Of a DNA stretch of 64,000 nt, positions 16,978 through 32,851 are shown one piece after another; positions within the stretch are counted from its first letter, which is position 1; every line of letters begins with the position of its first letter. Location of the stretch: positions 32,001-96,000 of the IMG/VR virus record IMGVR_UViG_3300033489_000003; one strand, 5' to 3'. The translations under genes and the position numbers were made by a program. The notes under the pieces were generated by a model. The model saw only the letters and a list, made by a program, of their open reading frames with translations, searched no databases and was not told the DNA's origin. Source of the DNA: a virus.

Positions 16978-17202
16978 TCAGCCGCCTTCGCCTTCGGGTG
17001 AGGGCGGCTTTTTTGCGTTTGGTGCTTCGAGTGCTGCGCGCATCATGTCGGCGGCGCCGGCTTGGCCAACGGCCTCGACGTTTCGGATCCACTGCGCGAT
17101 CGCCGTTCGGAAGCGCTCGGTTTCTTCGCGGAGACTGTCGATCTCCGCGCGCAAGTGCGCCGGCCCTTTGCGAAACATCGCGTACCATTCCTCGTCGTTC
17201 AT
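16978..17202 (-). CDS. Small coiled-coil protein
   Basis: ATGA-coupled; last gene of the cas-containing run. Confidence 0.45.
   Translation of the reverse strand: MNDEEWYAMFRKGPAHLRAEIDSLREETERFRTAIAQWIRNVEAVGQAGAADMMRAALEAPNAKKPPSPEGEGG
16980..17014 (+). terminator. Intrinsic terminator (+ strand)
   Basis: AGCCGCCTTCGCC-TTCG-GGTGAGGGCGGCT-TTTTT. Confidence 0.75.
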
Positions 17203-17432: not shown

Positions 17433-18152
17433 TTACCGCAACCGACGCAGCTCGACCGCGTAGTATCGCCGTTCCCACTCCGCCCGCCCATGTCCGTCGC
17501 CGCGCCGCCCGCCTAGCGAAGCAACGCGAATGCGCGTCGCGTCTAGCTGCCCACCGAGCGAGCACGCGTAGGCCGGATGGATCGGCAGGTCGTGCTCGAC
17601 GAGATACGCGAACACGTCGAGCCCGGACCACCACCCGATGGGCGCGCACGTGGACGCGCTGGACTCGCCGTATGCGCGCATCCGCGCCTTGCGTTGCCCG
17701 CTCTCGTCGGCGCGTACGCCGCTCACGTGAGCAGCGCCGAAGCGTTGCGCCGCTTCAGCGAAGCCACGCTCAAGCGTGCCCGTAGCATGCCAGCCGTCTT
17801 CGTCGCGGATGCACTGGCTCACGATCTCGTGATAGTTTGAGCTCGGGTACGTTTGAAAAAAAGCGTCTCGCACGAGCGAGCAATCAGGGTTGCAGATAGG
17901 CTCAACGCGGATCCAAACGACAGGCACCTCCGCCGCAAGCCCGGACACCATGTGAGCGATCACGACCGAGTCCTTCCCCCAACTGACACCCGCGTAGCAT
18001 CGCGTCCTAGCTACGAATTCGGCGACAGCCGCGCGCGCCCTATCTACGTGACGACGGTAGAGCGACAACGACGCGTGGGCTCGCGCTGTCCTCTCAACTA
18101 TCTCCCACGCCGCAAGGTCATCTGGCGTGTGCCGCGGTGACGCAATCAGCAC
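17433..18152 (-). CDS. CysH/PAPS-reductase-like protein of a type IV-B locus
   Basis: PP-loop VSWGKDS; GVRADES..R; PIGWW...DVFAYL....LPIHPAY. Confidence 0.85.
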   Translation of the reverse strand: MLIASPRHTPDDLAAWEIVERTARAHASLSLYRRHVDRARAAVAEFVARTRCYAGVSWGKDSVVIAHMVSGLAAEVPVVWIRVEPICNPDCSLVRDAFFQTYPSSNYHEIVSQCIRDEDGWHATGTLERGFAEAAQRFGAAHVSGVRADESGQRKARMRAYGESSASTCAPIGWWSGLDVFAYLVEHDLPIHPAYACSLGGQLDATRIRVASLGGRRGDGHGRAEWERRYYAVELRRLR

Positions 18153-18613
18153 GGTCGCCACGCACCGAAAACGCTCTCGGCTAGCCTTTCGTGTTTGCGC
18201 CATTCGCCAAACCCAAACCGCTGCATCTCGTCCCACGTGGCAGATCGTGTCCAGCCTGTGTGAAGTCGATGGGCGGCGACAACGGCGCCTGTCCTATGCG
18301 ACCCTTTCCAACAATGCACGAGCGTTCCACGCACAAGAAGCGATAGCACGTTGAGCGCTGGTAATCCCAGATGCTCATCGATCGGAAATCGAACGTACTC
18401 AACGCCAAGCTTTGCGTAGGTGCTTGAGGCCAGCAGTTGGCGAGGATTGTCTCTGAGGTCGACGACGCGACGGATTGCGTTATGAGTCAATGCCAGCTTC
18501 AATTCTCCGGCGGAATACTTTCCGGATCGGAACAGCCCGCGGTCGAATTCTGCGAACCTGCGCAAGCTCGTCAGCCCGGCACCGCGCAAAGCTGCTCTCG
18601 CGAATGCATCCAA
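18146..18613 (-). CDS. Cys-dependent (CX5R) tyrosine/dual-specificity phosphatase
   Basis: LFRSG, VVDLR, LVHCWKGSHRTG; start uncertain. Confidence 0.85.
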   Translation of the reverse strand: MDAFARAALRGAGLTSLRRFAEFDRGLFRSGKYSAGELKLALTHNAIRRVVDLRDNPRQLLASSTYAKLGVEYVRFPIDEHLGLPALNVLSLLVRGTLVHCWKGSHRTGAVVAAHRLHTGWTRSATWDEMQRFGFGEWRKHERLAESVFGAWRPC

Positions 18614-19218
18614 TACGGAAACGTGATCGTTGCATACGCGAGCGGAGGATCCTCTAAACCTGGCCAGTCCGCCGGCAACGCGCGCAGTGGCTTACCATCT
18701 CGGACGACTGGAAACCCGTCTCCCCACGACTCATACGGGTCCACGGCCCACTCGCGAACCCTTCCGCGCCCGGTTGAACGCTTGTGCCCAAGGTAGCGAA
18801 CGAGAGTGAGCAGATCGCGAATGGCGTCAGCGTCACCCATGGCGAACCACTCAACCTCGTCGCGCTCTGCCCACGCTACTTCGCTCGGCAAGCGGTACGA
18901 CTTCGTTGGCCCTGCCGATAACAGAATCCGTCTGAACTTCGTTGCGCCCATTGCCTGCGCTTCGGCAAGCGGGAACTTGCGGTTGACGTATCGCAGCTCG
19001 TGCTGGTCGAATTTAGGCGTAGCGAACGAGCACAGGTGAAACCTACCGCAGGGCTCCTTCGTAACCGGGATCTCGATGTCGGCGAGTTCGCCGAATCCTG
19101 GCGGTGGCAGTTGATCGCGCTGTGCCACGGCCCACGCGAGCAGACCATCTAGGCGTAACGACCCGTCCCGTAGCGAGATGGGGCCATCTAGCCGCGCCGT
19201 GATTCGAAGCGGAGTCAC
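18571..19218 (-). CDS. csf3: Type IV CRISPR Cas5-family subunit
   Basis: PLRITARL...LDGLLA...GPTKSYRLP...GD...IRDLL....LGHKRSTGRGRV..W. Confidence 0.85.
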   Translation of the reverse strand: MTPLRITARLDGPISLRDGSLRLDGLLAWAVAQRDQLPPPGFGELADIEIPVTKEPCGRFHLCSFATPKFDQHELRYVNRKFPLAEAQAMGATKFRRILLSAGPTKSYRLPSEVAWAERDEVEWFAMGDADAIRDLLTLVRYLGHKRSTGRGRVREWAVDPYESWGDGFPVVRDGKPLRALPADWPGLEDPPLAYATITFPYWMHSREQLCAVPG

Positions 19219-20198
19219 GCATTCACCGTAGCGAGAAACTCTTTGATGCGCGCCGCCCTGGCTTGAACGTGCGACCTGAACATGGTCCCAGTCTTCGCGG
19301 CAAGATCCGTCGTGTCCATGGGGTGTAGCCTATCAGCCGGCGCACTTACGGCAACGCCCTTGGCCATAATGGCGCGGAGTAGCCCATGCCCTGTTCCTCG
19401 CTTTCCGCCGACGCGCGCGTTGGCAAGCATTGCTGCCACCGTAGTGGAGAAAACGTCGACATCGAGATCGTTGTAGAGCGTGGCCTCGACTCCCCAAGAG
19501 AAAAGCGAGCCTGACGCGACGCGTTCGAACGTGCGGGGCAACATCGTACTCTTCGTTGCCTCCCGCGCCGTTGCGATGTCGGTATCGTGCGCGGCTTCGC
19601 TCTGCAAGAGTCGGTTCTCCGCATCGGAAGCGGCGCCAGCAGATAGGAGCTTACGCTTGCCTGGGTCGAGCGTTGGGTCCATGCGCACGCGCTGCTCTAG
19701 TTCCATGTGCGCGCGTGACGTGTCGAACTGACCTACGTGATCAACGATCCACTTTGGCAAAAGGTGCTTTGACTCCGCGCAAACCAGCAACGCGTCCTCC
19801 ACGACGAGTCGCCCAGGGATGACGCGATTGCCTGCGCACCCGCCCAGCAGCGACAGGGACGGCACGAGATCACACATCTCTCGATAGGTGTCGAGTTTGA
19901 TGGTGCTGGCGTCACCACGTCCAGTGATCATTCCGCCAGCAAAGAGAAGGCGGAGAGCGGCCTCCGACAGCGACGGGTCGGCCAGCAGCCCAGCGGCGTC
20001 GAGAAACGCGTACGCGATGGCCTCACGGCAAGCGTGGCGCATCGTGTCCGACGTCACGCACGCCACTTGCGCCCACGCACCATCAGGCATGCGGATCTTG
20101 CGACGGAACGCGACGGCGCTGTTCCCGTGCACTTCAGAGTGGTGCGCTATTGGCGTTGCCGCCTCCAGCAAAAACTCAAACCGTTTGATCTCGTGCAT
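19215..20198 (-). CDS. csf2: Type IV CRISPR Cas7-family backbone
   Basis: TPIAH, DTMRH, LLFAGG, LSLLGG, G-rich loop VGGKRGTGHG. Confidence 0.88.
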   Translation of the reverse strand: MHEIKRFEFLLEAATPIAHHSEVHGNSAVAFRRKIRMPDGAWAQVACVTSDTMRHACREAIAYAFLDAAGLLADPSLSEAALRLLFAGGMITGRGDASTIKLDTYREMCDLVPSLSLLGGCAGNRVIPGRLVVEDALLVCAESKHLLPKWIVDHVGQFDTSRAHMELEQRVRMDPTLDPGKRKLLSAGAASDAENRLLQSEAAHDTDIATAREATKSTMLPRTFERVASGSLFSWGVEATLYNDLDVDVFSTTVAAMLANARVGGKRGTGHGLLRAIMAKGVAVSAPADRLHPMDTTDLAAKTGTMFRSHVQARAARIKEFLATVNA

Positions 20199-20559
20199 CT
20201 CTAGCCTCCTTACGTTCTTCGGCAATCTTTCTAGTCAAAACCAACAGGAACGCGTATTCCCGCTCGATAAGGTCCAGCCACTCACTTGCGCACCCGCGCT
20301 CGTGCACGAGGTGCGTCAGTTGGAGTAATGATGTCGAATAGCGAACACTGGGCGCCGACAGTTGGAGCTGTCTTGCGATCATCGTCGCCCACTCCTCCGG
20401 ACCCGACGACATCCGCGCCGCCGCTCTCATTCTGTCCTGCAACTGCTCCCAATGTTTCAGCACGTTCACGTGCGGCGTCGACAGGTATGCCGCTCGGATC
20501 TCGAGCAGCACGTCTACCGTCGCGCTTCGGAGTTGCTCCTTCACCTTTTCTTCTATCAC
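20176..20559 (-). CDS. cas11: Cas11-like small subunit
   Basis: GTG with RBS GGAGG; helical 127 aa with HWEQL..RMRAA; lies between csf1 and csf2. Confidence 0.7.
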   Translation of the reverse strand: MIEEKVKEQLRSATVDVLLEIRAAYLSTPHVNVLKHWEQLQDRMRAAARMSSGPEEWATMIARQLQLSAPSVRYSTSLLQLTHLVHERGCASEWLDLIEREYAFLLVLTRKIAEERKEARDARDQTV

Positions 20560-21289
20560 GCTGAGCCTCCTTCTTTGCGGCCCGCGCCGCCTTCTCTTCT
20601 TCCATTCGTTTGGCGACCGTTTCTTCATCTCGTTGCGCCAGCCATAGCGCGAGCGCGAACCACGGCGAGCGGCGCTTGTCCGACCAGTTCTCCTCGAAAC
20701 GGCGAATCTCTTCGGCGCACCGTTGGTATGAGCCCTGTCCGTACTCACCGCGCTCCACTTCTTCTTTCGTCGCGCCAGCCGTAAGCAACGTCGTCATTCG
20801 ATCGACAAGCGTCCACCCGGACGCATGATCGATCGGAATCGTTACGAGCGTCTCCTCGAACATGATGGCGCCTCGCCGTGTATTTGGCGGGTTCACTGGC
20901 GTCCAAGGAATCACGTGTTTTTGGCCGCTGTCAGCAATAGCTGCGAACCACGGCCCCTCTTTCGGCGCACGCAGCCACGCGCGCATCTCCGGCTTGTTTC
21001 CCTTGTTGAACTTGAGCACGCATCGATCATCTACGAGCCACGAATACATGCGCATCGTATCCGGCGGTCGGCCGGCCATCACGTGGACGCATGAAGCGCA
21101 AACATGTGCGCTGGACGGCGACCGAACGCGTGACTGACCGACGAACGTACTGCCTAGCCACCGCTCCACCGGAACACCGAACACGCTCGATCCGGCGCAG
21201 ACCCAGCAATGTTCAGCGGCATGCTCTACAGCGTCGGCGACCTTCGCCCCGCCGAGACGGTCGCTCAAAAGTTGAGAGGCCATCATCAC
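20282..21289 (-). CDS. csf1: Type IV large subunit
   Basis: CWVC...F....P.S..VC.SC Zn finger; P..PWFAAIADSGQKHV.P..PVN. Confidence 0.8.
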   Translation of the reverse strand: MMMASQLLSDRLGGAKVADAVEHAAEHCWVCAGSSVFGVPVERWLGSTFVGQSRVRSPSSAHVCASCVHVMAGRPPDTMRMYSWLVDDRCVLKFNKGNKPEMRAWLRAPKEGPWFAAIADSGQKHVIPWTPVNPPNTRRGAIMFEETLVTIPIDHASGWTLVDRMTTLLTAGATKEEVERGEYGQGSYQRCAEEIRRFEENWSDKRRSPWFALALWLAQRDEETVAKRMEEEKAARAAKKEAQRDRRKGEGATPKRDGRRAARDPSGIPVDAARERAETLGAVAGQNESGGADVVGSGGVGDDDRKTAPTVGAQCSLFDIITPTDAPRARARVRK

Positions 21290-22230
21290 AGCATCATGTC
21301 CGTTATTATGACACGACCGCACCCGAATGCCGTTCTGCCTCCGAATCCAATCCTAGCCGCCGCCTCGAGCAGCCACCGCGAAACCGCGTTCACCTCAAGC
21401 ACGAGCGATCCGCTCCACCCACGCACGGGCCCATACTTACCACCGAATGGTATCGTTTCCGGATGCGTGTCCTGTGACACGATCTCAACGCAGATCCTCT
21501 TGGCGACATAGCGCGCCCACTCCTCTGACGGGGCGAGTCGTCGAACGAACTCAACACCGATCGCGCTTGCTATGTTGACGGCGCCAGGTCGAACGCATTC
21601 CGACGCACCACCGCCCGAGCGAATGACGATCGGAGTGATGGCGTCGAGCCGAACCAGCTGCCGCCCGCGCCTTTGGATCGCAGGTGATCGAAAGCGCCAC
21701 GCCGGTCCAAACGTTAGCGTAGTCGGCCGGTCGAACAACGGAACGTGTACCGACTTTCCTGCTAGCTTCATTCCTTCCTGTCTGAACCAGTGTACTCCCC
21801 ATCCGGATCCATGCGGGACGAGAGAGAAGTTTGGAATACGCGGCACGTGGCCGGCGCCGAGTACAGCCGTAAGCGCGCCATGAAGAGCGGGCGAGTTTCT
21901 TAGTTCGATGGGCCAACGCGGCAACGGTGAATAGTGCACCGTCATGGCGCATCCCGGAAGGTGGACATGGTATGGAGGAGCGCCGGCAAGCCAATGGTTT
22001 TGGCGCGTGCAGTTTCTGTTCCTCCTCGCCCACGCTTCGCACCGAAGCCTTACGGCAAGCGTTTCGCCAATCGGTCGGCGTCGCTCTCTAGTCTGTTCGC
22101 GAGCGCTGTCTAGCGTGCGTTTGCGTTTGCTCCTACAGGCTTCAGAGCACGTCGCCGCGTTCGCGCACAGTTTCCGGAACGTTGACCCGCATTGAACGCA
22201 CCAAGCTTGCCTTATTGAGGACAACGGCAT
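21286..22230 (-). CDS. cas6: Cas6-family RAMP endoribonuclease with N-terminal Zn finger
   Basis: C-terminal G-loop IGFGGRTAFGCGRV; ITPIVIR; N-terminal CVQC...CSEAC. Confidence 0.75.
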   Translation of the reverse strand: MPLSSIRQAWCVQCGSTFRKLCANAATCSEACRSKRKRTLDSAREQTRERRRPIGETLAVRLRCEAWARRNRNCTRQNHWLAGAPPYHVHLPGCAMTVHYSPLPRWPIELRNSPALHGALTAVLGAGHVPRIPNFSLVPHGSGWGVHWFRQEGMKLAGKSVHVPLFDRPTTLTFGPAWRFRSPAIQRRGRQLVRLDAITPIVIRSGGGASECVRPGAVNIASAIGVEFVRRLAPSEEWARYVAKRICVEIVSQDTHPETIPFGGKYGPVRGWSGSLVLEVNAVSRWLLEAAARIGFGGRTAFGCGRVIITDMML

Positions 22231-22544: not shown

Positions 22545-23751
22545 GTGACAACTCCTTCACGAAGCATTGTCTGCCTCGCTACGGCTTCTCGGTTCAACGA
22601 GGCGCTTACAGCTCGCCCCTCCCCGATCGCGGTGCCCCCGCGATTGTACGTTCTTGGCAGCGTTGACGTCGCGGTCCAGTACGAGTCCGCAATGCGGACA
22701 GTCGTGGACGCGAACGCTTAGGCTCTTGCGAACCGTAGCGCCGCAACCGCTGCATTCTTGTGATGTGCCGCGTGGTTCCACCTTGATGAACTCGCGTCCG
22801 GCGCTTTCAGCCTTGTACGCGAGAATCCTGATGAATTGTGCCCATCCGGCGTCGTGAACTTGTTTGGCTAGGCGCATCTGCGCCAAACCTTTGATGCTGA
22901 GATTTTCGACGGCGACCGAATCGAAACGGGCGACGATGCCGCGCGCCGCCTTGTGGTGGAAGTCGAGCCGAGCTCGCCTGACGCGGTCGTGTTGCTTCGC
23001 TAGCAACACAACCGCTTTGCGACGCCGACGCGAACCGCGTTTGCGGCGAGTGACCTTACGGTCAGCCGTTTTGAGCAATTGTAACGCGGACTCGTAGCGC
23101 CTTGGATTCTCAACAGTCTCGCCGGTGCTCAGAGCGGCGAAAGTGGTGACGCCAACGTCGATGCCAACGCTGGCGCCTGTTGCCGTTAGATGTTCGACGC
23201 GGACGTTGTCGCACACGAAAGTCACATACCAGTGGCCGTCTCCGGCGAGCGTGACGCGGACTTGCTTGACCGTGCCTACGATCGGGCGATGCAGCTTAAC
23301 CTTGACCTTGCCGATGCAAGACAGTTCCACCTTGGTTCCGCCAGCAACAAGGCGAGCGCCGTTGCGATTTATCGCGTCACGGAACGTGAAAGTGCGGTAG
23401 CGCCCACGCCCCTTGAACCGTGGAAACCCAGGAGTCTCGCCGGCCTTGCAGCGACGGAAGAACGCACGGTAGGCGCGGTCGAGACGCGTGATAGCGTCCT
23501 GGAGCAGGTGGACGTGAATGCCAGTGTACTCTGGCCGTACAACGCGAACTTCCTTCAGCTCAAGCTGCTGTTGGTACTCGGAAATGGATCGCCCCTGCTT
23601 CTTGTAAGCGTCTCTTCGCTCCTGTAGAGCAGCGTTGTATAGTTCACACAGTAGGCGCATCGTTTCTCGCAAGCGCGCCTCTTGGGCCCGCGTAGGATAG
23701 ATACGATAGCGATAGGCGCGGATCACAGCGCCATCCTTGACTCTACTCATT
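22545..23751 (-). mobile_element. IS200/IS605-family (IS1341-like) tnpB-only element
   Basis: Right end ...GAAGCC...hairpin CGAGGCA-GACAA-TGCTTCG...GGAGTTGTCAC; no tnpA; left boundary inferred. Confidence 0.65.
22557..23750 (-). CDS. tnpB: RNA-guided endonuclease TnpB
   Basis: AYRYRIYPT; RuvC GIDVG / VAVENL / DRDVNAA (D-E-D intact); TSQECSGC..CPHC. Confidence 0.95.
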   Translation of the reverse strand: MSRVKDGAVIRAYRYRIYPTRAQEARLRETMRLLCELYNAALQERRDAYKKQGRSISEYQQQLELKEVRVVRPEYTGIHVHLLQDAITRLDRAYRAFFRRCKAGETPGFPRFKGRGRYRTFTFRDAINRNGARLVAGGTKVELSCIGKVKVKLHRPIVGTVKQVRVTLAGDGHWYVTFVCDNVRVEHLTATGASVGIDVGVTTFAALSTGETVENPRRYESALQLLKTADRKVTRRKRGSRRRRKAVVLLAKQHDRVRRARLDFHHKAARGIVARFDSVAVENLSIKGLAQMRLAKQVHDAGWAQFIRILAYKAESAGREFIKVEPRGTSQECSGCGATVRKSLSVRVHDCPHCGLVLDRDVNAAKNVQSRGHRDRGGASCKRLVEPRSRSEADNAS

Positions 23752-29367: not shown

Positions 29368-29506
29368 TGTGGGAAGCGGGCAGGACTCGAACCTGCGACC
29401 CAAAGATCCGGTAACGATTCTCGGCCGGCCCGTCACCGGGCAAAGATGTGAGAACCGATATCCCTTGCGGGAATTCTTTTGCTCTACCGACTGAGCTACC
29501 GCTTCC
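29368..29506 (-). ncRNA. tRNA-scaffold RNA 2 with a Y-like module replacing the anticodon loop
   Basis: Acceptor GGAAGCGG/CCGCTTCC, D arm GCTC-AGTCGGTA-GAGC, anticodon stem AAAGA/TCTTT enclosing a large structured insert, T arm GCAGG-TTCGAGT-CCTGC. Confidence 0.8.
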
Positions 29507-29808: not shown

Positions 29809-31497
29809 TCAGTTTCGAGCAAAGTCGGCCATGAGGGCCGGCGCCGCAGAATCGAATCCTACGAAGTCCAACATTCCGGCATCGTTGGGATCGGCGATCG
29901 TGAACTCCGTTGCTGTCATGCCAACTACGGCTAGTTTGGCTGGTCGGCTGAGCTTCTCCCGGTACGCGCGGAGCGCCTGGAATGGATGAATCGTCCCTGC
30001 CCAAGTTTCGTTGTCCGTGTAGACCTGGAACATGTCGACCTCGATATCGGAGCCGGCTGCGTAGAGCATGGGCAATGCGCAATCGGTTCCGCCCATGGGC
30101 AGCTTTGCTATCGCGCGGATGACGTCGTCGAGGCGCTGCTTGGGGCTGATATCGATCGGCGTGAAACCCGGCGCTCCGCCGCCATGCATGCCACCGTACC
30201 CGCGTCCGTTCATCGGTGCCGTAAACCCGAATATGTGCCAGTTTTTCTCTGTGCGAGCAGTCACCATTGCCATCGCTGCGCTGGCCACGCGCGGCGTGAG
30301 ACCAGGGCAGCCAGCGATTGCGCCGCTTTCCATAGACCCTGAGACATCAAGGCCGATCAGGATGTTCTTGCCCGTCGGCTCCACCGCCTGAAACGCCAGG
30401 TAGAACGCTTCGTCGAGCGCGTCGACAATCTCCCGCGCTGGAGCCCAGGTGAGCTTGCCCTTATCCCCGTGGCCTTGCTGATAGACGCGCAGCGCCGACA
30501 GGAGCGCGATCGGGTGAACGCGCGCCTTCTTGATCCTGTCGGCGTCGGCGATCATGCCGGCCGCCAGCTTGACGTGCTCGCCCATCGGCTTGAAGAGCCC
30601 GACTGCCGTCATCTTCGCGAGGTTGCGGACCAGCGCCGTCTGCGGCATCTCTTCGAGCAGCGCTTCCCACACGTCCACCGAGTTCTTGTGCTCTGTCGGG
30701 ATCATCTCGTGGGTGAATCGATGTTGCCGGATGAGCTTCGCGGTCGTCTTCGGATCCGGCGACGCCTTGAGCTCATCGTACGCGGCGAGAAGTGCTGGCA
30801 ACGCTTCCAGCCTGCTCGGGTACTGGACTGCGCGCTCTTCCTTTCCGGCCATGCGCTTCATGCCGCGCTCGCCCATCGGGGCGCCTACGCACCAACGGAA
30901 CGCGGCGTCATGCTGCGGCGTGGGCGCCTTCGGATGCGATAGACGCAGCACGTCACGATGGGCCCAACCGTAGCGCTGTTGATACTTGAGCAGCTGCTGA
31001 GCGAGCCTGTCGGGCTCCTTCGCGGTGTACCACCGAGCAACCGCCGAGCGCAGACCTCGCCCCCACTTGCGGAAGTTCTCCACGTCACGAACGAAGTGGA
31101 ACAGGTGGGTGCCGATGCGGCAGACTTTCGGGAGAGCAGCAAGCGCAATAGCCCTTGTTTCCGGCCTGCTATCAGCGGCCGCCATCGCGAGCGCGAAGAT
31201 CGCCGGGTCGTTCTTGGGCGCGCGACCGGCGTCGGAAATCTCGACGATCCGAGCGACCGTGCGCGCCCCGTCTTCTGCGAGGCAGTCGAGGACGACTTGC
31301 GCGTTGTCGCGCGTGAGCGCCCGCTCAGAGGCGTAGTAGGTCCCGCCGTCAGCGCCCAAGATGAGCCAGCGATCAAGCCGCGCCCACTTGTCGAGCGTGA
31401 ACGCGAAGCCCCCAGCGGAGTTCTTCTTCTGGTCGCTCCGCGCAGACTCCGACTGCGGCGTCTTCAGCGTGGAAAAGTGTTGCCCATAGTTCGACAT
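29809..31497 (-). CDS. rsr: Ro60/TROVE-domain RNA-binding protein
   Basis: NSAGGF.F, RWLILG..GGTYY, KYQQR.GW.HRDVLRLSHP; vWA MIDAS DVSGSM, GGTDCALPM, TDNETWAG. Confidence 0.95.
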   Translation of the reverse strand: MSNYGQHFSTLKTPQSESARSDQKKNSAGGFAFTLDKWARLDRWLILGADGGTYYASERALTRDNAQVVLDCLAEDGARTVARIVEISDAGRAPKNDPAIFALAMAAADSRPETRAIALAALPKVCRIGTHLFHFVRDVENFRKWGRGLRSAVARWYTAKEPDRLAQQLLKYQQRYGWAHRDVLRLSHPKAPTPQHDAAFRWCVGAPMGERGMKRMAGKEERAVQYPSRLEALPALLAAYDELKASPDPKTTAKLIRQHRFTHEMIPTEHKNSVDVWEALLEEMPQTALVRNLAKMTAVGLFKPMGEHVKLAAGMIADADRIKKARVHPIALLSALRVYQQGHGDKGKLTWAPAREIVDALDEAFYLAFQAVEPTGKNILIGLDVSGSMESGAIAGCPGLTPRVASAAMAMVTARTEKNWHIFGFTAPMNGRGYGGMHGGGAPGFTPIDISPKQRLDDVIRAIAKLPMGGTDCALPMLYAAGSDIEVDMFQVYTDNETWAGTIHPFQALRAYREKLSRPAKLAVVGMTATEFTIADPNDAGMLDFVGFDSAAPALMADFARN

Positions 31498-32851
31498 GTA
31501 GATGCTCCTATCTTCCGTTGCGTCAGCCTTCTGTACTCCCAAACCACCCAACGCCCAACCTCTTCGCCCACTCGCCAGCGGTCCGCGTCACGACGTCCGC
31601 GCCATCCTGGTCAATCTGCGCGATGTCACCGTCCTCGTCACACCACATCCCAAGCTCCTCCTCGTCCGGCCACTGCCGCCACAGCGCGTCGTCCGTCTCG
31701 TCGTAGTTGTCTCGGCATTCGCCCGTCTGCTCGAACAGCGCCGTCCACGCGTCCGCGACGTCGGCCGCGACGACGAGATCGCAGTCGGAGAACTCGAAGA
31801 CGTGGAGGGGGGTCATCGGCCTTCCAGCTTGTCGAGGTCAACGTGTCCGCCTGTCGCAGCAAACAAAGCATCGGTTAGAGTACGCACGCGCGCTTCGGCG
31901 GCTTCAACGCTCTTGAGCAGTTCATCTATGCGCTCTCGCTGGTCCATCGTCTGGTCAAGGAGCGCCTCATTGCATGCATGTGTCCTCGCCTGCGTTGCCT
32001 CCGCCTCGGCCAGCTTCGCCTCGGCGATAGCCGTTCGATTCTCCCGTTCGCATACCGCCTTCTGGTACCACTCCTCTTGCTCGGCCAGCTTCGCGCGCAA
32101 CTCACCCAGCTCGGCCACCAATTCGCGATTGCGCTCTTCCCAGTGCCGGGCGCATCCAGGCGGCGTGGCGCAAACTAAATCCTGGCAGCAGTCCATCTTC
32201 GAGCGCAGCTCGTCTCGCTCCGATTCGACCTCGTCGAACAGGCGGACCATGTCGTTCGCTTGCGTGCGCACCGTTTCTAGTTGTGCTCGCAGCTCTTCAA
32301 TGGTTCTCGACTGAACCGACCGAATCACCCCATCAACGTTCTCCAAGCCTTCGGCGATACGGTTGATGCTCTGCGTGGCAGGGTGAAATACGCGCGCCTC
32401 GGATTCCTTGAGCGCTTCGCGCAGCTCGTCTCGCTCGGCAATTAGCTTCGCAAACTGCGCGTCGGAGGCAAGGTCGCTGGCAATTGCGTCGTCACGCTCC
32501 ACGGTCAGGTCGTCCACCATGCGAATCAGCCCGCCGAGAATGTTCCCAGCCACGGCATGGCCGGAGGCGTGACGACTGCGCGCGACGGTGAGAATCTTCT
32601 CGTCTTGACCTCCGTCCTGAGGCTCAGACACGACCACCGTTCCGCGGCCGTCGCACCGCGGGCACGTCGTTCGCTCGTCCCACACAGACGGTTCTGGTGC
32701 CGACGAAGCGAGCACAGTGACGTCCAGCGGACCCGCTTGCTCAACGCGTCGCTGGAATCGCGCGCCTGGCACTTCGGGCGGTGACTCAGCTGGCTTGAAC
32801 ACGCCAACGCCGCACGCTCGACTAATGTGCAATTCGCCGCATAGGCTACAC

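Follow-up and report, generated by a model that had tools for sequence, protein, structure and literature searches.

The type IV-B operon and its phosphatase gene

The locus described here lies in a 64-kb stretch of viral DNA (the window), which comprises positions 32001–96000 of a 104,643-bp IMG/VR virus record rated as complete by CheckV and has a G+C content of about 62%. The minus strand from 17433 to 22230 is a tightly packed operon that encodes, in order, a Cas6-like protein, the type IV CRISPR-Cas proteins Csf1, Cas11, Csf2 and Csf3, a cysteine phosphatase, and a CysH-like PP-loop protein (CasCysH). The role of type IV-B systems is listed as unknown (PMC11127173), and no function has been settled for the subtype or its signature protein CasCysH since its definition (PMC7038947, PMC8175902, PMC11127173). 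The source virus is probably a temperate phage, since a serine recombinase, a Ro60 gene and a weak virion-protein match are found on the record.

A first-pass annotation placed an intact CX5R phosphatase active site, HCWKGSHRTG, between csf3 and a gene for a CysH-fold PP-loop protein, and this description holds. The motif (CX5R-T) is located at 18287–18316 (−) by direct reading of the sequence and by family alignment, while the flanking genes match Csf3 (1e-34) and the PAPS_reduct family. The phosphatase gene is assigned to 18146–18565 (−) and encodes a type IV-B-associated protein of 139 amino acids (aa), based on PF03162, AlphaFold, Foldseek and the start sites of homologues. The longest open reading frame (ORF) is 18146–18613 (−), and 18613 is only the start of that longest frame. 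Homologues begin at (M)RRF, which corresponds to TTG 18565 in the window. This start falls 5 nt past the csf3 stop (18571), and hence there is no overlap with csf3. The database gene call (P0001, 147 aa) corresponds by codon count to a start at TTG 18589, which would give a 19-nt overlap. Consequently, the proposal that the gene overlaps both of its neighbors is correct for cysH only. The overlap with cysH, whose start is GTG 18152, spans 7 nt (GTGCTGA) at the phosphatase stop, and this start agrees with the consensus N-terminus MLIxSxRH of 30 CasCysH homologues.

Every sequence in a 30-member alignment of the phosphatase family keeps the H, C, G, R, T, and G of the P-loop, and HCWKGSHRTG conforms to the CX5R superfamily signature HCX5R(S/T) with its catalytic Cys and Arg. 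Membership in PF03162 (Y_phosphatase2) is marginal, at 28.6 bits against a gathering cut-off of 27 over 46 residues around the P-loop, and several other models of the dual-specificity phosphatase (DSP) type are matched, all below their cut-offs. An AlphaFold model built with 11 sequences has the DSP α/β fold (predicted local distance difference test, pLDDT, 88.7; predicted template modeling score, pTM, 0.84). The top PDB matches of this model in Foldseek are AtPFA-DSP1, At1g05000, TpbA, and Siw14 (E 1e-8 to 1e-6, template modeling score, TM, ~0.65); 177 PDB matches have E<=0.001, and among the matches listed all belong to the protein tyrosine phosphatase (PTP) superfamily, with most being DSPs. 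Searches of solved structures with the family profile likewise return TpbA (2e-14) and the PFA-DSPs (1e-8), with marginal matches to the RNA 5'-phosphatases 1yn9 (E 0.21) and 1i9s (E 0.48). The general acid of the superfamily is an Asp or Glu on a loop upstream of the P-loop; a conserved, non-invariant D/E in the family's PIDE segment, which aligns with the VDD segment of TpbA, is a candidate for it. Because the ORF, the profile, the model, and the invariance across 30 members agree, the CX5R motif is real, lies within a real gene, and is under constraint.

Distribution of the phosphatase and its linkage to SpoU

The phosphatase is rare. Matches fall into 11 clusters (90% identity) among 5.8 billion proteins, and when 1.84 billion representatives were searched exhaustively with a profile, approximately 17 clusters (50% identity) of proteins of 117–172 aa scored at E<1e-24; below these, the scores fall off to a broad group of mostly longer proteins. 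No close relative is found in 185,579 species genomes, GenBank phages, or PLSDB. GenBank phages give zero matches, PLSDB gives only Caballeronia DSPs that are 31–32% identical, and among the GTDB species genomes the sole matches are a Planctomycetia protein at 33% identity and a fragment of 19 residues, both lacking csf genes nearby. PHROGs and PADLOC contain no family for the phosphatase, and PADLOC contains none for SpoU or the fusion described below. Full-text literature searches returned no paper that ties the phosphatase or SpoU to type IV-B, and neither the word phosphatase nor the word SpoU is present in the main type IV surveys and reviews; within the type IV literature searched, the only extra enzyme named is the ADP-ribosyltransferase of a 2018 preprint on CRISPR-linked genes. 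Taken together, the phosphatase is a genuine, rare, and small new Cas-associated family.

The genomic context of the homologues is uniform with regard to the CRISPR-Cas subtype. Seeding with the phosphatase only recovered five further independent loci (one IMG/VR virus and four metagenome contigs), and each has csf2, csf3, or cysH within ~2 kb. With the loci found by the other scans described below, all eight independent phosphatase-bearing loci are type IV-B operons, bearing out the co-occurrence with csf genes for which a neighborhood check had been suggested. In every one of the five seeded loci, the phosphatase abuts a ~130-aa methyltransferase of the SpoU/TrmH class (PF00588) with all three SpoU motifs; the solved relatives of its profile are the tRNA/rRNA 2'-O-methyltransferases TARBP1, TrmH, and TrmL. 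The gene orders, where PTP denotes the phosphatase, are cas11-csf2-csf3-SpoU-PTP-cysH in L003, csf1-(cas11 candidate)-(endonuclease insert)-csf2-cysH-PTP-SpoU-csf3 in L002, csf2-PTP-SpoU-cysH in L005, csf2-cysH-PTP-SpoU in L006, and SpoU-like-PTP-(98 aa)-csf2 in L007. Despite this shuffling of gene order between loci, cysH, PTP, and SpoU form one contiguous block wherever cysH is visible. The insert in L002 (5530–6342, +), between cas11 and csf2, is a homing-endonuclease-like ORF with a Vsr/DUF559 match and a weak NUMOD3 match.

The two enzymes are also found within a single polypeptide. Six-frame ORFs from 62 further viral IV-B loci, seeded with the CasCysH profile, were scanned with a hidden Markov model (HMM) of the phosphatase, and 61 of the 62 have no phosphatase domain. 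In L011, 7753–8511 is a single PTP::SpoU ORF directly after cysH, with an N-terminal phosphatase domain (PF13350, 26.6 bits), a C-terminal SpoU domain (28.6 bits), and the P-loop HCFHGRDRTG. A second PTP::SpoU fusion, L077:5689–6378, comes from a different sample, also directly follows cysH, and was found in a SpoU-seeded scan in which all 11 loci lie inside IV-B operons. The two fusions are 59% identical over 233 aa without a gap, and hhalign matches the N-terminal half of the L077 protein to the phosphatase family with 98.4% probability. A protein-database search for longer, fused forms of the phosphatase found none; the fusions surfaced only in HMM scans of six-frame ORFs from related loci.

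Counted by independent locus, SpoU occurs alone in seven, with a separate phosphatase in five, and as a fusion in two, while the phosphatase occurs alone in one, the window. The window is the only phosphatase locus without SpoU, and no SpoU gene is found in the whole 104.6-kb virus record. In the family tree, a supported clade containing the SpoU-linked protein of L003 (P0002), its sole member with known context, is the sister group of the window protein. The parsimonious reading of this placement is that SpoU was lost in the lineage of the window. The tree is unrooted, and the added TpbA-like sequences P0030, P0033, and P0038 did not separate from the Cas-associated family. An alignment of window and L003 DNA over the csf3/PTP junction has no detectable similarity there, so that a scar left by loss of SpoU could not be traced. 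The 62 viral IV-B loci are mostly plain csf1-cas11-csf2-csf3-cysH, and most IV-B loci carry neither phosphatase nor SpoU; the two genes are optional additions in a small minority of IV-B loci. In other viral IV-B loci, the space between csf3 and cysH or directly following cysH holds other genes, namely those for a second PAPS_reduct+DUF3440 protein, a Dam-type DNA methyltransferase, a YspA/SLOG protein, and a cupin (L032:5270–6445, L030:3346–4203, L019:7714–8103, L040:6493–6993). The accessory slot of IV-B operons is variable.

Effector genes and partner proteins

The effector genes of the window were identified with PADLOC, and NCBIfam concurs at lower scores. On the minus strand, csf3 (Cas5) is located at 18571–19218 (Csf3_0_IV, 1.1e-34; NCBIfam TIGR03116, 3.6e-15), csf2 (Cas7) at 19215–20225 (typeIV_Cas7, 3.9e-38), cas11 (the type IV small subunit), from a candidate start, at 20176–20748 (Cas11_1_IV, 4.4e-8, aa 98–189), and csf1 (Cas8-like) at 20282–21322 (Csf1_0_IV, 1.1e-29), where the Csf1 domain covers aa 25–236 of the ORF. 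The window Cas11 is 55% identical to its L003 counterpart. The csf1 ORF runs ~110 codons beyond the Csf1 domain as a charged, low-complexity tail (20282–20748, −) that shares ~470 nt with the cas11 frame. In L011 and other relatives, too, the matches to csf1 and cas11 overlap; the genes may truly overlap, or a start or stop may be wrongly placed. All four type IV-B genes (csf1, csf2, csf3, and cas11) are therefore found, together with a cysH-like gene (PF01507, 1e-9, PP-loop SWGKDS). No CRISPR array was found across the 64-kb window. Type IV-B loci are characterized by the absence of both an array and Cas6; here the array is absent, but a Cas6-fold gene is present at 21286–22230 (−). The locus is type IV-B by the literature definition (PMC7038947, PMC8175902), with two extra genes.

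The Cas6-like protein has a Cys-rich, helical N-terminal extension and was identified by PADLOC (Cas6, 2.9e-6), AlphaFold, and Foldseek. Its model has a pLDDT of 81, and the leading Foldseek matches listed are Cas6-family endoribonucleases (Cas6, Cse3), including the type IV Cas6 6njy. A sequence profile of the protein matches nothing in the PDB, where it was identified by fold search alone. An invariant His opens the first helix after strand 1. The gene is found again, at varying positions, in at least 10 related viral IV-B loci, and in L011 it is apparently split over two ORFs. Immediately upstream of the Cas6-like gene lies an intact TnpB gene (22557–23750, −; NCBIfam guided_TnpB, 2e-88); no big transposase-like ORF was noticed around it, and no search was aimed at one. 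Just past the downstream end of the operon, a strong terminator-like hairpin on the plus strand (16980–17009; 13 pairs and a T-run) comes after a minus-strand ORF of ~60 codons (about 17020–17202).

CasCysH (17433–18152, −; 239 aa, PF01507) is a PP-loop protein of the PAPS-reductase/CysD fold with its PP-loop, SWGKDS, at 17967–17984. The best solved relative of its profile is the ATP sulfurylase subunit CysD (1zun, 5.5e-10), and PAPS reductases are less close. This fits the published view of CasCysH as an ATP alpha-hydrolase rather than a reductase (PMC8175902). CasCysH of the window's clade has at least 558 homologues, with more than 120 clusters at 52–65% identity. A set of 62 IMG/VR contigs (L011–L072) represents a virus-borne IV-B clade whose CasCysH proteins are 30–57% identical to that of the window. 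CasCysH finds no match at 1e-20 among GenBank phages or in PLSDB, and all known carriers of the virus-borne IV-B clade appear to be uncultured viruses. Prediction of a complex between CasCysH and the phosphatase gave no answer (score 0.00), which speaks neither for nor against binding.

Proposed function

Four independent comparative lines tie the phosphatase to type IV-B systems and, most closely, to SpoU: the exclusive context, the conserved adjacency, the Rosetta-stone fusion, and the translational coupling to cysH. Together they suggest that the enzyme works with the IV-B machinery and SpoU. The first-pass annotation had proposed a paired effector with CysH. The association is upheld, and the genes are better described as a three-gene block in which the closest partner of the phosphatase is SpoU (five adjacent, two fused). 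SpoU-class enzymes catalyze ribose 2'-OH methylation in RNA. Due to this chemistry, and because the IV-B complex assembles on RNA (PMC7937560), an RNA-directed role is the most economical reading. The Cas6-fold gene of the same clade is in keeping with it. We tentatively favor, at somewhat less than even confidence, a role for the protein as an active Cys-based phosphatase that would be a dedicated accessory of a virus-borne type IV-B clade, removing a terminal or ribose phosphate and working with SpoU and CasCysH on Csf-handled RNA. Among phosphatases with the Cys-type fold are RNA 5'-tri/diphosphatases (BVP, Mce1, and PIR1/DUSP11), and the PFA-DSPs, the nearest structural relatives, cleave phosphoanhydrides.

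In the proposed mechanism, the accessory block would consist of the phosphatase, CasCysH as a PP-loop, CysD-like adenylate-forming enzyme, and, in every locus other than the window, the SpoU/TrmH methyltransferase. The phosphatase would act on RNA handled by the Csf ribonucleoprotein (Csf1/Cas11/Csf2/Csf3). The phosphate removed may be a 3'- or 2'-phosphate left by endonucleolytic (e.g., Cas6-like) cleavage, or a 5'-tri/diphosphate. We infer the order of reactions as dephosphorylation of the RNA followed by SpoU 2'-O-methylation and AMP-dependent chemistry by CasCysH. In the window phage, where SpoU would have been lost, the phosphatase may serve CasCysH and the Csf complex alone. Remodeling of Cas6-generated RNA ends was among the options first put forward for this gene; a Cas6-like gene is indeed present at the level of fold, while the ends themselves stay conjectural because no CRISPR array lies in the window.

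Several observations weigh against this proposal. The nearest characterized relatives of the phosphatase are TpbA, which acts on protein phosphotyrosine, and PFA-DSP/Siw14, which acts on inositol pyrophosphate, rather than RNA 5'-phosphatases, and RNA is a putative substrate proposed from comparative evidence. Cys-phosphatases are monoesterases or anhydride hydrolases and are not known to open 2',3'-cyclic phosphodiesters, the usual product of Cas6. The usual methylation targets of SpoU-class enzymes are internal nucleotides of folded RNAs rather than RNA ends. Furthermore, SpoU, the partner underlying the suggestion of RNA, is absent from the window, and neither gene occurs in most IV-B loci, which indicates that the phosphatase is dispensable for core IV-B function. 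Confidence in the RNA-directed role is held below even because the substrate is assigned indirectly, the nearest characterized relatives act on proteins or inositol pyrophosphates, such enzymes are not known to open cyclic phosphodiesters, and SpoU is missing here.

The first-pass annotation listed several nucleotide-handling options, and of these the action on RNA is favored over the destruction of a signaling nucleotide or the countering of host kinases, because the closest partner is an RNA 2'-O-methyltransferase. That the phosphatase instead acts on small molecules in the service of CasCysH chemistry (PAP/PAPS/APS, pyrophosphate, NADP-type 2'-phosphates, or an adenylated by-product), thereby pulling the PP-loop reaction forward or destroying a signaling or toxic metabolite, is unlikely, even though several features are in line with it. 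The gene is translationally coupled to cysH through the 7-nt overlap, the closest structures are those of the phosphoanhydride-cleaving PFA-DSP/Siw14, weak Pfam matches extend to the PTP-NADK and Tc-R-P domains of nucleotide-centered conflict systems, and CysD, the nearest relative of the CasCysH profile, makes an AMP-anhydride. In contrast, the fusion partner is SpoU and not CysH, and the P-loop is less basic than the HCKRGKHRTG of the PFA-DSPs. CasCysH can also do without the phosphatase, given its more than 120 close clusters against 11 for the phosphatase and the 61 of 62 loci that are phosphatase-free.

A role as a protein phosphatase (phosphotyrosine or phosphoserine/phosphothreonine) that regulates a Csf subunit or reverses kinase-based anti-phage signaling in the host is improbable. 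The best sequence match among solved structures is indeed a protein tyrosine phosphatase, TpbA, at 2e-14, and the fold is a generic DSP fold; however, a general anti-kinase factor would not be expected exclusively in IV-B operons or fused to an RNA methyltransferase, and no kinase emerged among those neighboring ORFs that were scanned with Pfam or NCBIfam. It is very improbable that the gene is a leftover in the window phage, drifting without a role now that its SpoU partner is gone. Such an explanation would suit the sole phosphatase locus without SpoU, in a record with no SpoU anywhere, whose protein is sister to a clade with a SpoU-bearing member of known context (L003, P0002), yet every invariant or nearly invariant residue of the family is kept, the frame contains no frameshift or stop, and the gene is packed tightly between csf3 and cysH with a start/stop overlap.

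A broader proposal, possible but doubtful, is that IV-B Csf complexes are RNA-guided or RNA-scaffolding machines for RNA modification and not interference complexes. The Csf filament would base-pair with or otherwise hold an RNA while the accessory enzymes modify it covalently, with SpoU and the phosphatase acting alongside adenylyl transfer by CasCysH, possibly onto a terminal phosphate. Such a repair-, protection-, or cap-like pathway might serve phages to shield or reprogram RNAs, for example tRNAs attacked by host nucleases. Elsewhere in the window, a Ro60 protein is encoded at 29809–31551 (−), with TROVE and Ro60 vWA domains (E 1e-48 to 1e-59). Beside it, a 134-nt match to the Rfam tRNA model (29372–29505, −; 53 bits), not called by ARAGORN, may be a tRNA-like Y RNA. 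Ro60 together with the tRNA-like match is a second sign of RNA-centered biology on the phage. No RtcB is found in the whole virus record.

Earlier speculation on type IV-B systems centered on DNA modification or anti-CRISPR roles. A IV-B-only phosphatase that lies beside SpoU or is fused to it provides comparative evidence that at least one IV-B clade may use covalent RNA chemistry, and the linkage of the two enzymes suggests that IV-B systems chemically modify RNA. The question is thereby narrowed to end chemistry and 2'-O-methylation of Csf-bound RNA. The phosphatase itself, which defines a small new Cas-associated family, is an accessory addition to the known type IV-B system, and its role in RNA modification is plausible and unproven.

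Comparison with known systems

The window operon resembles known type IV-B systems with CasCysH, such as that on the Mycobacterium sp. JS623 plasmid (PMC7937560, PMC8175902, PMC7038947), in its csf1, cas11, csf2, csf3, and cysH-like genes, in its lack of an array and adaptation genes, and in its location on a mobile element. In contrast to these systems, the operon of the window includes a Cas6-fold gene and a Cys phosphatase, to which its relatives add the SpoU methyltransferase. Cas6 is a rare exception in type IV-B, with 12 instances (PMC7038947). The clade of the window is found on uncultured viruses.

The phosphatase shares its DSP fold, an HCxxGxHRTG-type P-loop, and a similar size with the PFA-DSP/Siw14/At1g05000 proteins and TpbA (PF03162). 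The identity to these proteins is 19–25%, the genomic context is wholly different, and the IV-B phosphatases form a separate, tight family (~17 clusters at 50% identity). The window P-loop lacks the extra lysines of the PFA-DSPs, with W and S in place of the K and K of those enzymes. Unlike periplasmic TpbA, the window protein, which begins MRRFAEF, apparently has no signal peptide, as judged by eye. The Cys-type RNA 5'-tri/diphosphatases (baculovirus BVP, 1yn9; the metazoan capping enzyme, 1i9s; and PIR1/DUSP11) share the CX5R fold and offer a precedent for action on RNA ends; the profile matches to them are marginal and they are not among the top structural matches, so that an affinity to this subfamily is not indicated.

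The bacterial Pnkp-Hen1 and Pnkp1-Rnl-Hen1 RNA repair systems, in which an RNA-end phosphatase, a 2'-O-methyltransferase, and an ATP-dependent adenylate-forming enzyme are operon-linked and physically associated (PMC3675462, PMC4411300), are similar in the logic of the gene set only. There is no homology between the two sets of proteins. The Pnkp phosphatase is a binuclear metallophosphoesterase, and Pfam, NCBIfam, and PDB searches of the scanned proteins gave only Cys-phosphatase, SPOUT, and PP-loop families, with no homologues of Hen1 or of Pnkp with its kinase, metallophosphatase, and ligase. Hen1 is a Rossmann-fold methyltransferase, and the ligase is a lysine nucleotidyltransferase. In the IV-B block, by contrast, the corresponding set comprises a Cys phosphatase, a SPOUT methyltransferase, and a PP-loop ATPase, with no kinase, and it is embedded in a Cas effector operon.

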